Source: a virus (Duplodnaviria > Heunggongvirae > Uroviricota > Caudoviricetes). Taken from it: DNA of 64,000 bases. This document shows positions 2,921-7,326 of the stretch, in pieces. Below the pieces are notes generated by a model. That model was not told the origin of the DNA and made no database searches. It saw nothing but the letters and a program-made list of their open reading frames with translations. The stretch lies in IMG/VR virus record IMGVR_UViG_2681813318_000003; one strand, written 5' to 3'. The stretch's first letter is position 1. The number at the start of each line of letters is the position of its first letter. The translations under genes and the position numbers were made by a program.

Positions 2921-3484
2921 TTATGCGTATTGCGTTTTGTGCGGTTGCTTATTCAAGTCGTGGCGATGCGTAAGCTCCCGCATCATGTCTTCAAGCCGAC
3001 TTTTCGTATCATCAAGCTGGTCGGCCATTGCTCCCAAAAGCTGGCGAACGGCCATTGGATCGTCACTGTTTAGTGATGGCATTTTATATCCCGCTTTAGA
3101 AGACATAAGATTGATTGCAGACATCAACATCGTTAGAGAAGACTTAAGTCCGGCAATTTCACGATCTTTGCTGGCAATAATCGTCTCACTATTGTTACCG
3201 TCATGGGTTCCTTGAGTCTCGCTCACCATATCCAAAGTCGCCTGCAACTTATTAGCGCGCTCTTTTTCAGCAAGATAATGAACACCGAAATGGTGTGCCA
3301 AAGCTACAACCTGAGTTGGCTCTTCAAAGGTGGAATTAAAATTAAGTACTGTAAACAGTCTCTCAAATATAGAAACGTCTTCTGTTCCCCGAACAATGCC
3401 TAACATTTTGACAAGTTCATTAGCATCCATTTCTTCGAATAGGGCGTTTTGTTCATCAGCTATTGCTTTGCATTTCTCGCACAT
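2921..3484 (-). CDS. hypothetical protein
   Basis: 187-aa ORF; conserved leader and AAACAAGTTGTTT palindrome upstream. Confidence 0.55.
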   Translation of the reverse strand: MCEKCKAIADEQNALFEEMDANELVKMLGIVRGTEDVSIFERLFTVLNFNSTFEEPTQVVALAHHFGVHYLAEKERANKLQATLDMVSETQGTHDGNNSETIIASKDREIAGLKSSLTMLMSAINLMSSKAGYKMPSLNSDDPMAVRQLLGAMADQLDDTKSRLEDMMRELTHRHDLNKQPHKTQYA

Positions 3485-5138: not shown

Positions 5139-5732
5139 TTACCACTTGTTGTAAATAAAACCAATGTCTTTCTTGTGAGGCGTATCGGCTGCGGAAAAAG
5201 CTGCGATCTTCGCGAGTCGATCACATATTTCATTTTCACGATGCCCGGCGTGACCTTTAACCCACTTCCAGCGAACATTATGTCGACTTGCGGCCTCATC
5301 CAGACGTTTCCACAGATCAACATTCTTTACCGGTTTTTTATCAGAAGTCATCCATCCATTACGTTTCCACCATTTCATCCACTGTGTCATGCCGTTTTTC
5401 AGATACTGGCTATCAGAGTACAAAATAACGTTGCATGGATATTTCAAACGCTCCAGCCCGATAAGTGCGCCCATCATCTCCATGCGGTTATTGGTGGTGC
5501 TATGAAAACCATCTGAGAACTCGCGTTCCTCACCACGATACTGGAGAACGATACCGTAACCGCCCGGGCCACCCGGATTTTTAAGGCAAGAGCCATCACT
5601 AAAGATTTTCACGGTTTTGAGCTGGGGATTGAACTCTACGACAGGCGTTGTGGGATTGGTGCGGGGAGAATTTTTGTTTTTGTCTTTTTTGCGAGTTTTT
5701 GCTTGCGATCGGGCTGGTGTCTTCGTCGTCAT
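5139..5732 (-). CDS. rnhA: ribonuclease H
   Basis: RNase HI-like C-terminal region (FSDGSC...GYG..., ...VKGHAGH.ENE.CD.LA); start moved to ATG 5730-5732, preceded by AGGAG. Confidence 0.85.
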
Positions 5733-6316
5733 ATAAACTCCTGAATCAATCGCCGCGCCGATTTTTTTTCCTCGCGCGTGCGCACACGCGTGCGTGTTAA
5801 TAATTATTAAAATAAACAAATTACTTCCCAGAACAGGTTTTTATAAACCTGAACTGAACGAACGAAGTGAGTGAAGTTCACCTCGAACGAAGTGAGAGGT
5901 TGTCTTTTCAGGTAATACTCTCCCAGGGAGGTGAGTATAAAATTCCTCACCAACCTGGTCGTTTCATAACCTGAAAAGCTATGGTCTAAGTCTACTGCCA
6001 GCTTAGACTTGGGAAGTTATGGATGACAGCACCCCAGAACCGAGATCTTCCCACACTTTATGAAGGGGAGTACTGGATTCAACCTCTCGAAACACCCCAG
6101 ACTCGACAATCATAAAGTGACCCTTGTCTCTGCTCACTTTGGTTCCCCCTTCCCCGACACCTATACGGCACCGGTTCTACGCTGGTAGTGAGCTTTTTTA
6201 AACCTGACGCCAGTGACGCTTACCCCCACCCATCAGGTCGAGCCTCCAGTCTACGACTGGAAACTATCATATCTTAGCACTTACAATTCACTTTATGAAT
6301 AGTTTGTACTTATCTA

Positions 6317-6547
6317 TCATTGTGATTGATTATTTTCTCGACCATGTAGTTGAACATTCAAGGCAAACACCTCATTGATCAACTCACCTAAAAGCTGTTC
6401 AACAAGTTCGCGATGCTCGCCAAGATGCAAGCACTTAATTGCCCACTCGTACAAGTTGAAAGCCTGCTCACGATCTTTCATCATTTCACGAGCCTGGGCC
6501 AGAAAATCGCTCTCTACGAGCGCAACGACATTAGTCGGGTATGACAT
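6317..6547 (-). CDS. hypothetical protein
   Basis: Start moved to ATG 6545-6547, preceded by AAGGAAAC. Confidence 0.45.
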   Translation of the reverse strand: MSYPTNVVALVESDFLAQAREMMKDREQAFNLYEWAIKCLHLGEHRELVEQLLGELINEVFALNVQLHGRENNQSQ

Positions 6548-6652
6548 GTTGGTTTCCTTAAAGTGGTTCATAAAATCGATTTTAAAGCGTCTGGGAAGGG
6601 GTTCTAGTGGATTCTGTAGTGATGTTCAGGTCTGGAGTCTCTGATACAAAAC

Positions 6653-6711
6653 AGCCTGCTTCCGTATATTAATAATTAATATGTAGTTATTTATATATAC
6701 AGAAGCAGGCT
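6653..6711. repeat. inverted-repeat element (17-bp arms AGCCTGCTTCCGTATAT, AT-rich spacer), copy 1 of 2
   Basis: Near-identical element at 54331..54384; flanking GTTCTAGTGG-like sequence is also shared. Confidence 0.6.
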
Positions 6712-6732
6712 AATTACAGACGCCAGAACAAA

Positions 6733-7326
6733 CTAAGCAGCCTTCTTTGATGGTCTTTTTTTCCTGATCACATTCGCAGGATCATACCCTCCCAGACTTT
6801 TCATGACGTCCAAAGGGATCTTGCTTATAGAGTGCCCAGCGTCCTGACAGAATCCTCGAAAAACAACGAGCATACTGCCACCGGGGTTGATGTTTACTTC
6901 TACCTGACCCAAATTGACGTCAGGCTCGACAAACGCTACGCGGCCACCAGACAGAATAATCGTCTCATTCGCACACTCTGTTGCACGCTCATACCACTTT
7001 GTATCGAGGGATTGAGGAATTAGCATCACTGTTGTAACTCCGCGAGCCTGCTCACGTATAGCCGCATCAATCCAGGGGGAGATTTTGGAGTAGGGTGGAT
7101 TGAGGAAGGCAATTGTACCTGGCTGTCCCCATTCAGATTTCAAAGCATCACGCTCAACGCCTATGAAAATAGGCAGCTTTGCGTTGTCCTTGTTGCAGGC
7201 AACGTCAACATCAAATGTCACTCCAAGATAACGTTGAATGGCAGAAAACAGCCAATCAGGTGTTCTCCAGAGGTCACGAAGAGAGTTGTCGCGCTTTCGC
7301 TGTTTGATTTTTTCGGCTGCAATCAT
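6733..7326 (-). CDS. phage-type DNA N6-adenine methyltransferase (Dam-like)
   Basis: 197 aa with N-terminal WRTP and central NPPY motifs typical of the small phage Dam family. Confidence 0.75.
   Translation of the reverse strand: MIAAEKIKQRKRDNSLRDLWRTPDWLFSAIQRYLGVTFDVDVACNKDNAKLPIFIGVERDALKSEWGQPGTIAFLNPPYSKISPWIDAAIREQARGVTTVMLIPQSLDTKWYERATECANETIILSGGRVAFVEPDVNLGQVEVNINPGGSMLVVFRGFCQDAGHSISKIPLDVMKSLGGYDPANVIRKKRPSKKAA

Follow-up and report, generated by a model that had tools for sequence, protein, structure and literature searches.

The large RNAs GOLLD, ROOL, OLE and raiA are the described systems closest to the locus presented here: like it, they are several hundred nucleotides long, adopt a multi-domain fold that is supported by covariation, belong to mobile elements, are conserved above the level of their neighbouring genes and are orphans with respect to function. 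A further point of reference is provided by the PeSLs, terminator-promoter cassettes of T4-like phages whose stem-loops have been shown to terminate transcription (Arbiol et al. 2010, PMC2839356; Comeau et al. 2014, PMC4122927). Published PeSL stems are of the G-run/C-run or A3-4G3/C3T3-4 type, and the 13-nt hairpin cap reported below is undescribed in these two papers (PMC2839356, PMC4122927). Clinical Escherichia, Klebsiella, Salmonella and Enterobacter commonly harbour phage-plasmids of the SSU5 type, and for phage-plasmids in general surveys have documented the carriage of resistance genes (PMC9600943). In the literature we found no description of a non-coding RNA (ncRNA) in either SSU5 or pHCM2.

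Here we analyse a gap between two protein genes in a 64-kb stretch of viral DNA (referred to throughout as the window). A preliminary description made from the letters alone had pointed to an ORF-free region at 5820-6316 with direct repeats and hairpins, which might encode a structured RNA or hold a regulatory site. We find that the element in this gap is very probably an RNA gene. It represents a new family of large structured ncRNA that was previously unannotated and has an analogue in a sister lineage.

Genomic setting and conservation

The window shares 98-99% identity with Escherichia phage PhiR41_1 and with phage Cyrano (pLF82), and its positions 5600-6600 share 81-85% with Salmonella phage SSU5 and with Klebsiella phage-plasmids; judged by these identities, it is therefore to be classed as an SSU5-type phage-plasmid. 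The gap sits in a long minus-strand run of nucleotide-metabolism and replication genes, in the order nrdA, nrdB, NTP pyrophosphohydrolase, thyA, DHFR, AAA ATPase, 3'-5' exonuclease, Dam-type methylase, orf76, gap and rnhA, and the nrdAB/thyA/DHFR/exonuclease cluster around rnhA is T4-like. It is bordered on one side by orf76 (6317-6547, minus strand), which encodes a 76-aa protein, and on the other by the RNase HI gene rnhA (5139-5732, minus strand). The absence of ORFs holds for the entire space between them (5733-6316), where none exceeds 48 aa. NCBI PGAP annotates nothing in the gap, and the Cyrano record OV696614.1 carries a 44-aa ORF, CYRAN_81, inside the element. The outer limits proposed earlier were slightly off, in that the functional unit extends from about 6299 (the promoter -35) to about 5806 (the U-rich 3' end).

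Searches of the flanking proteins with Pfam, PHROGs and PADLOC gave RNase H and Dam as the sole assignments, and no RNA-binding protein partner was found among these proteins. The orf76 product is acidic and has no family annotation in the same three collections; its relatives form only 52 clusters, all of them from enterobacterial phage-plasmids. A search of genome contigs with RNase HI returned only chromosomal rnhA genes. PADLOC-type defence and toxin models matched no neighbour except for a weak Csn2 hit (E 0.002), which belongs to a distant 187-aa ORF at 2921-3484 and is evidently spurious. The gene set downstream of the gap varies between lineages, and in SSU5 it includes an antirepressor gene on the same strand as the RNA. 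An IncFIB-type replicon is carried elsewhere on these plasmids.

In PLSDB the element was detected in 687 plasmids, and 12 phage records carry it as well; most identities lie at 80-95%. Its PLSDB hosts are Klebsiella, Escherichia, Enterobacter, Salmonella, Citrobacter, Cronobacter and Shigella, and all but ten of the plasmids (677/687) are non-mobilisable. In the same plasmid population orf76 with the methylase flank is 60-80% identical in 545 of 732 records, and rnhA lies in that range in 355 of 676. A column profile of 61 unique sequences revealed a near-invariant core at 5852-6246, and in pairwise comparisons with three divergent relatives the identical fraction was 0.85-0.96 in this core versus 0.5-0.8 in the coding flanks. 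Far from being absent or poorly conserved in related genomes, the region surpasses its flanking genes in conservation and is the best-conserved sequence of its neighbourhood in SSU5-type phage-plasmids, and the element is specific to those of enterobacteria. Being non-coding and evolving more slowly than the genes around it, it is therefore under direct selection.

Because the close relatives left many helices invariant, divergent homologues were sought via orf76. In every lineage with orf76 at 56-79% identity the corresponding gap contains the RNA in diverged form (nhmmer E-values 2e-151 to 4e-4). In a Buttiauxella plasmid (L444) the window-type RNA is kept and rnhA is absent, the downstream gene being a helicase gene on the opposite strand. 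Since both this RNA and a second RNA family described below are retained in lineages that lack rnhA, the RNA would not be simply an rnhA leader, and it appears to accompany orf76 and the slot rather than RNase HI.

Promoter and ends of the transcription unit

On the minus strand, a -35-like hexamer TTCATA (6294-6299) is separated by a 17-nt spacer from an extended -10, TGcTAAGAT (6271-6279), which is conserved in the unique homologues. A TTNANN hexamer at the 17-nt spacing occurs in 58 of the 61 unique homologues, TANNAT is found in all 61, its distance from the CTCGACCTG anchor being fixed at 26-29 nt, and the upstream TG of the extended -10 is present in 58, the bases surrounding these elements being only about 70% conserved. 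In a simple promoter scan the -10 element scores 8/12, which is below that scan's listing. By its sequence and its conservation, this arrangement identifies a sigma-70 promoter of the element's own with an extended -10, and transcription would start at about 6264-6267, directly at the hairpin that we call P0.

At the opposite end, an invariant UCUGGG followed by a U-rich tract (5806-5833, minus strand) marks where the RNA probably ends or is terminated. In most lineages 9-12 of the 16 nt that follow GGGAAGUAA are U, and only 5-7 in the Klebsiella lineage. This U-rich tail is separated from the last stem; the putative terminator is atypical, and weak in the Klebsiella lineage, and a simple intrinsic-terminator scan found none at the RNA 3' end. 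The conserved RNA block stops upstream of the rnhA 5' region (5733-5805, minus strand), which lies outside the RNA core and holds an AT-rich stretch, an A8 run, a Shine-Dalgarno sequence and a conserved alternating purine-pyrimidine tract, CACGCACGCGTGTGCGCACGCGCG.

A conserved RNA fold on the minus strand

Compared with dinucleotide shuffles the region folds with z = -5.0 on the plus strand and z = -5.8 on the minus strand, and 0 of 100 shuffles were as good. When an alignment of 52 close relatives (A1) was folded by RNAalifold, the minus strand gave 128 predicted pairs with 99.7% of cells paired and 8 pairs with double changes. Many G-U pairs are invariant in this alignment, and one single pair appears as GU in 22, GC in 18 and AU in 12 sequences. 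G-U pairs become A-C mismatches on the plus strand; the RNA is therefore the minus strand, in gene sense.

A further alignment (A4) comprised 14 sequences including the divergent homologues, and was set against 500 shuffles and against slid alignments on five measures. The observed fraction of paired cells was 96.1% (shuffled 85.4%, slid 30-50%), compensatory double changes were found at 44 of 79 pairs (shuffled 19.3 +/- 2.6, slid 8-18), and the covariation score was 0.39 (shuffled 0.195, slid 0.06-0.11). In total 112 cells carry compensatory changes, and on none of the five measures did any of the 500 shuffles match the observed value. Helices that are invariant in A1 do covary in A4, namely helices 6, 7 and 9, which correspond to the A1 arms H7, H10 and H12. 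The element thus has an evolutionarily conserved RNA fold: structure prediction with covariation from homologues, which had been put forward as a check, beats all 500 shuffles, and the suspicion of a structured RNA is further borne out by G-U pairs and G-C/G-U/A-U transitions that are workable on the minus strand alone, by the conserved promoter and by an RNA-seq signal in a 97%-identical relative.

All parts of the fold are given here in minus-strand order. The 5' terminal hairpin P0 (6242-6264) recurs at the same position in 8 of 8 lineage representatives with entirely different stems, and its window copy contains U-G pairs. It is followed by H1 (6201-6239), a long G-rich hairpin that leads into an A6 linker; this helix covaries in A4, where 8 of its 14 pairs are compensatory, and it also contains invariant G-U pairs. 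Domain 2 (6132-6193) is made up of helices H2-H4, an invariant ACCAGCG and an invariant G-rich tract, GGGGAAGGGGGAACC. Covariation is seen in both H2 and H3, where one pair occurs as GC, as GU and as AU. In the RNAalifold fold of A4 the ACCAG pairs with the invariant UCUGG of the 3' end (helix 142-145/550-553); this ACCAG/CUGG closing helix is a predicted pairing whose two sides are both invariant, so that no covariation signal is possible. Domain 3 (5894-6130) is a multi-arm core with arms H7-9, H10-11, H12 and H13-14, near-invariant in close relatives and with covarying helices in the divergent homologues (A4 helices 6-11). Within it lie a spurious 44-aa ORF (6003-6137) and the GGTGAG...CTCACC hairpin (5930-5951), whose arms are indeed present at 5930-5935 and 5946-5951. 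Beyond the core come two adjacent hairpins capped by the 13-nt CUCACUUCGUUCG (5854-5900) and a terminal hairpin, CAGGUUU-AUAA-AAACCUG (5834-5852). The latter is the 7-bp CAGGTTT/AAACCTG palindrome seen earlier (5834-5840 and 5846-5852), and elsewhere its stem is kept with altered sequence, as CAGGGG/CCCCUG or as CAGGGA/UUCCUUG with a G-U pair. A GAAGGGGG/UCCCCUUC pseudoknot is a possible candidate within the RNA, and the invariant unpaired tracts GGGGAAGGGGGAACC, ACCAGCG and UCUGGG suggest tertiary contacts or a bound partner.

The capped hairpins also account for the tandem repeat of the preliminary description, which was right as to the repeat itself: an exact 13-mer, CGAACGAAGTGAG, occurs twice on the plus strand (5859-5871 and 5884-5896), and this direct repeat forms the two caps in the RNA. 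The copies are close together and not strictly tandem, lying 25 nt apart from start to start. The window contains no other exact copy, and with up to two mismatches allowed there are 3 matches versus 1.3 expected. All of the features named in that description fall in the 3' third of the RNA; its strand, its true extent and the nature of the repeat as a hairpin-cap pair had not been identified.

A scan of the whole window with Rfam 15 (4227 covariance models) at the gathering threshold returned only three tRNAs at 44.6-44.9 kb. When 5650-6750 was scanned permissively, all hits were at chance level and far below threshold, none of them over the core, and Rfam scans of the divergent homologues, the second family and the motif-bearing loci produced no relevant match. 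When the element was compared with the remaining window sequence by short-match BLAST, only chance-level 10-15-mers appeared.

The 13-nt hairpin cap is a widespread module

In the RNA sense each copy of the 13-mer, CUCACUUCGUUCG, tips a hairpin. The same two-hairpin module was found in unrelated viral (phage) contigs, with up to 26 identical nucleotides and with closing stems that covary (CCUC/GAGG, CAUC/GAUG, AACAAC/GUUGUU, CUGGUC/GACCAG and GUCCAC/GUGGAC). In T4-like phages it adjoins uvsY and uvsW, and in Enterobacter phage EC-W2, Yersinia phage JC221 and an IMG/VR contig (L177) the module is followed by a U-rich stretch and a near-consensus TTGAC-N17-TATAAT promoter. In a metagenome scan, loci with two copies of the 13-mer number at least 120; their sources are soils and sediments, hot springs, sea water and the gut. 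Among the matches listed, the copies are nearly always intergenic and nearly all co-oriented within a locus, and 31% of their flanks offer at least four contiguous pairs versus 3% for shuffled partners; among the same matches the orientation of the cap relative to neighbouring genes is mixed, and no protein family recurs beside it. Degenerate neighbour caps show covariation between positions 4 and 10, from A-U to G-C or C-G.

We regard the cap as a structural module, probably a terminator or 3'-end stabiliser, and in our view it is not key to the function of the large RNA. In two homologues (L439 and L437) the first cap is the G-C variant and the second is replaced by ordinary hairpins, one of them with a C(UUCG)G tetraloop, and this replacement points to a role at the RNA level and on this strand. 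Wobble counts favour the CUCAC strand only modestly (23 versus 13), and the other strand, or DNA, may also have a role. The complementary (plus) strand of the cap reads CGA-RCGNAG-YGAG, which presumably could form tandem G-A pairs and a GNA triloop in the manner of the very stable d(GCGAAGC) mini-hairpin.

Two further interpretations of short motifs were discarded or downgraded. The sequence CACUUCGUUCG equals part of the anticodon arm of E. coli tRNA-Pro(CGG), and mimicry of this tRNA was considered; the covariation of the motif (positions 4-10) implies a pairing unlike that of tRNA. Arrays of an 11-mer in several contigs (L164, L171, L208 and others) were considered as decoy arrays and then given less weight, as a single chance match to the 11-mer is enough for a tandem repeat to show them and L171 looks coding. 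The hairpin arrays of the 13-mer in metagenomes are more convincing than these 11-mer arrays.

A second RNA in the same slot

The Klebsiella plasmid pKSB1_7G.2 has the same gene order as the window, with orf76 and rnhA that are 49% and 51% identical to their window counterparts and a gap of 652 nt between them. No homology of the two RNA families was found by profile search or by shared k-mers. This gap is 84-100% conserved in 30 Klebsiella plasmids and folds with z = -6.5, and in an alignment of only five sequences 15 of 142 pairs are compensatory, on the gene-sense strand. The second RNA starts with a promoter-like sequence and a covarying 5' hairpin, and is kept without rnhA in several members (L388, L427-429 and L431).

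A wider proposal, which we regard as possible and rather doubtful, is that large phage-plasmid RNAs in a fixed post-orf76 slot form a new class founded by the window RNA, and that the cap is, separately, an undescribed cross-phylum motif. At least two sequence-unrelated RNAs of similar size and organisation would then fill the slot, and life as a plasmid prophage would require each of them; such an RNA could, for instance, be the core of a ribonucleoprotein governing plasmid copy number, immunity or the takeover of the host. The cap, CUCRCUNCGYUCG, would be an RNA/DNA motif of phage terminator-promoter junctions and of environmental tandem hairpin arrays.

Expression in E. coli LF82

Published RNA-seq of E. 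coli LF82, the host of phage-plasmid Cyrano, was re-analysed by Misson et al. 2023 (PMC9928086), and the Cyrano copy of the element is 97% identical to that of the window. CYRAN_81, inside the element, is listed there as an expressed 'moron' at 12 times the prophage background, with an fpkm of 117 versus 9.5 for CYRAN_80 (orf76) and 8.4 for CYRAN_82 (rnhA), these counts being possibly not strand-specific, although both strands are plotted in the paper (PMC9928086). Over five conditions its log2 level ranges from 6.8 to 10.35 and exceeds that of either neighbour by 3.2-5.5 units (PMC9928086). Overall, the signal of the element in the published LF82 data is 12-40 times that of either neighbour. 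Both the pattern and the level of CYRAN_81 match those of the putative repressor CYRAN_45, and its expression peaks at 6 h in macrophages, a condition in which the authors found Cyrano to be uninduced (PMC9928086). From these levels and from a macrophage peak without induction it follows that there is a discrete, abundant transcript in the dormant state. Bulk RNA-seq signal may include rare induced cells, and the macrophage data speak against this. The idea of an RNA had been made to depend on a discrete transcript, and one is detected at the 97%-identical Cyrano locus. CYRAN_43, at 723 times background in the LF82 data, was set aside, being absent from the window and not a tRNA locus.

Possible functions of the RNA

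The reading that we prefer, and hold tentatively, is that the minus strand from about 6299 to about 5806 is a stand-alone ncRNA gene of about 450 nt whose product acts in trans in the plasmid state. From a protective 5' hairpin the RNA continues through a long hairpin and a small junction domain into a multi-arm core; the two capped hairpins, the terminal hairpin and the U-rich tail complete it. The 3' hairpin module would serve as terminator and 3'-end stabiliser, built on the plan of the terminator-promoter cassettes found in T4-like phages. In the plasmid (dormant) state the RNA might then work as a protein scaffold or decoy, or as a regulator, although the certainty attached to this role is low. 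A trans role is suggested by the expression pattern, by the independence from the downstream gene and by selection over the full length, including the invariant unpaired tracts, and we would prefer it to an RNase HI leader or a DNA site.

The same position would also suit a cis-acting leader or attenuator of the rnhA operon, which would sense a signal or a protein and control read-through at the 3' hairpins. The RNA lies directly upstream of rnhA on the same strand, ends in a weak and atypical terminator and is far more abundant than the downstream gene, as is usual in attenuation; in SSU5, moreover, the antirepressor gene is downstream and co-oriented. A leader is nevertheless unlikely: the RNA persists without rnhA in the Buttiauxella plasmid, where the next gene is on the other strand, the second-family RNA also does so in L388, L427-429 and L431, the genes downstream differ by lineage, and Rfam contains no riboswitch or leader family that matches. 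The presence of RNase HI next door, within a T4-like nucleotide-metabolism and replication cluster, could alternatively hint at a replication element, in which an RNA-DNA hybrid would be processed by that enzyme into a primer and the AT-rich stretch would unwind. Invariant G-runs in the RNA are followed by just such an AT-rich region, and in T4-like phages the same hairpin module stands beside uvsY/uvsW, which is where the T4 origin oriF is located. We nonetheless consider this quite improbable, given that the cumulative GC skew has no switch at the site, that no iterons or DnaA boxes are seen there, that the IncFIB-type replicon is elsewhere on the plasmids and that the RNA persists in rnhA-less lineages. 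Its expression, furthermore, peaks when the phage is not replicating lytically, and full-length selection on the fold, G-U pairs included, exceeds the needs of a primer. Both the leader and the replication readings are weakened by the rnhA-less lineages, by the missing GC-skew switch and by the expression data.

Two remaining explanations dispense with a functional RNA or with its structure. A purely DNA-level site (for packaging, a recombination hotspot, an operator cluster or a cruciform) could draw on the plus-strand cap and its presumed d(GCGAAGC)-type mini-hairpin. The terminator-promoter cassettes of T4-like phages are likewise recombination sites (PMC2839356). Such a site is very unlikely here, because the opposite strand, or a cruciform, would have A-C mismatches in place of dozens of G-U pairs and at the steps from GC through GU to AU; it is also at odds with the conserved promoter, the detected transcript and the homologues in which the second cap is swapped for an RNA-type C(UUCG)G hairpin. 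That the locus is a small protein gene, namely the 44-aa CYRAN_81 ORF (6003-6137, minus strand, GTG start), is scarcely credible. The ORF has an annotation in OV696614.1 and appears among the expressed 'morons', yet NCBI PGAP does not call it, and 1-2-nt indels or stops break its frame in four lineages (frameshifts in L114 and L136, stops in L148 and L149) despite high conservation of the nucleotides. Substitutions within it lack codon periodicity and fall in helices as compensatory pairs. The DNA-site and small-protein explanations are thus contradicted by the G-U covariation and the broken frame.

Comparison with known systems

An RNA gene at this locus has been mis-annotated in one strain as a 44-aa 'moron' protein. 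The strong constraint on this 450-nt RNA and its expression in dormancy make it a good candidate for a role in maintenance or host control, and one that is invisible to protein annotation. The work also provides a family alignment ready for Rfam, a second analogous RNA, and a widespread hairpin-cap motif for studies of terminators and RNA structure.

Of the systems with which the window RNA may be compared, type III toxin-antitoxin loci differ in having a tandem array of identical repeats of about 36 nt ahead of a gene for an endoribonuclease toxin, whereas here there are only two 13-nt copies, 25 nt apart, and no neighbour matches a toxin model. The C4 RNA of P1 and the CI RNA of P4 are closer in context, as RNAs of plasmid-prophage lysogeny that lie upstream of, and co-oriented with, genes that include an antirepressor in some relatives. 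However, C4 is about 77 nt long and has its own Rfam family, which gave no match here; the window RNA is six times larger, and no complementary target boxes for it were found in the 64-kb window. The c4-icd-ant arrangement of P1 and riboswitch leaders serve as the models for a cis-acting leader. ColE1 RNA II and T4 oriF resemble the locus in having a promoter-driven, structured and G-rich transcript of about 450-550 nt, a link to RNase H and an AT-rich stretch that follows. In contrast to RNA II, no antisense partner of the RNA I type was recognised for the window RNA, which has no Rfam RNAI match and no skew switch; it differs from both in that it persists without rnhA, is expressed in the dormant state and occurs on plasmids with a separate IncFIB replicon.

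With the PeSLs the likeness is one of layout. The modules of EC-W2, JC221 and L177 display the PeSL order of stem-loop, AT-rich sequence and near-consensus sigma-70 promoter, and the 3' end of the window RNA together with the upstream region of rnhA shares the hairpins and the AT-rich stretch; no consensus promoter was recognised between the hairpins and rnhA in the window. Unlike in a PeSL, the module is here a mere tail of a much larger RNA. It is in this larger RNA that the resemblance to GOLLD, ROOL, OLE and raiA noted at the outset lies. From these the window RNA is set apart by having no sequence or structure match to them in Rfam 15, by its confinement to enterobacterial SSU5-type phage-plasmids and by its recognisable sigma-70 promoter.

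A second RNA family in the same slot

The slot that follows orf76, the 76-aa protein gene, is occupied in another Klebsiella lineage by a strongly structured and conserved RNA of approximately 500 nt that is unrelated in sequence to the window RNA. This second-family RNA follows the orf76 homologue in Klebsiella plasmid pKSB1_7G.2 (CP110724.1; L386:2340-2991) and is carried by 29 further Klebsiella plasmids, as well as by the IMG/VR loci L425-L434. Its fold z-score is -6.5, and 15 compensatory pairs were found among 5 sequences. The RNA is still present in some members from which rnhA is absent.

Where rnhA is found in the window (5139-5732), the encoded RNase HI carries a Lys/Arg-rich N-terminal extension of approximately 40 residues, lying outside the Pfam RNase_H match (residues 40-178), that may serve as a nucleic-acid-binding tail. 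The region upstream of this gene contains, at approximately 5765-5800, a 24-nt strictly alternating pyrimidine/purine tract, CACGCACGCGTGTGCGCACGCGCG on the minus strand, with an A8 run 3' of it. The tract is prone to Z-DNA formation and is kept across lineages; the AT-rich stretch preceding it is not conserved.

Distribution of the 13-nt hairpin cap

The cap CUCRCUNCGYUCG, two copies of which tip hairpins near the 3' end of the window RNA, is covered by no Rfam family and was found widely across environments (metagenome contigs L261-L380; further loci L177, L201, L223, L224 and L298). It often occurs in tandem hairpin arrays, whose stems vary and whose orientation is uniform within each locus, and in two loci (L292; L268/L301/L321) it adjoins the ends of tRNA genes. 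In T4-like phages (EC-W2, L382:2480-2655; JC221, L383:2500-2665) inverted cap pairs bound an AT-rich core beside uvsY, with consensus promoters facing outward.

Other loci

Four tRNA genes (Ser-TGA, Thr-TGT, Tyr-GTA and Asn-GTT) lie on the minus strand at 44199-44852 of the window, all called by ARAGORN and three of them also by Rfam. In phage Cyrano the LF82 data place expression of CYRAN_43, an annotated hypothetical protein adjoining the integrase (OV696614.1 40268-40822; L385), at 723 times the prophage background. No tRNA lies within this locus. CYRAN_43 is absent from the window, where other sequence takes its place and the region from 40944 to 42241 differs.

Palindromes and their possible roles

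Upstream of orf76 (6626-6732) we observed a long near-perfect AT-rich palindrome (AGCCTGCTTC...GAAGCAGGCT), which may be a bidirectional terminator or operator; its sole matches, to microRNA families, were judged spurious.

A 14-bp palindrome, GGTAAGTACTTACC, is repeated through the window, with 13 copies at up to 3 mismatches (1072, 5126, 7341, 16893, 21575, 27518, 30799, 31038, 39284, 45608, 54226/54230 and 59691) versus 1.5 expected, a count matched by none of 100 shuffles. A degenerate copy lies at approximately 6296-6312. In relatives the palindrome directly follows the orf76 stop, immediately 5' of the -35 element of the window-RNA promoter, and similar copies occur upstream of the second-family RNA. 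It looks like either a genome-wide operator of a phage regulator or a weak terminator; the operator reading finds a likeness in P1, whose C1 operators are also scattered.
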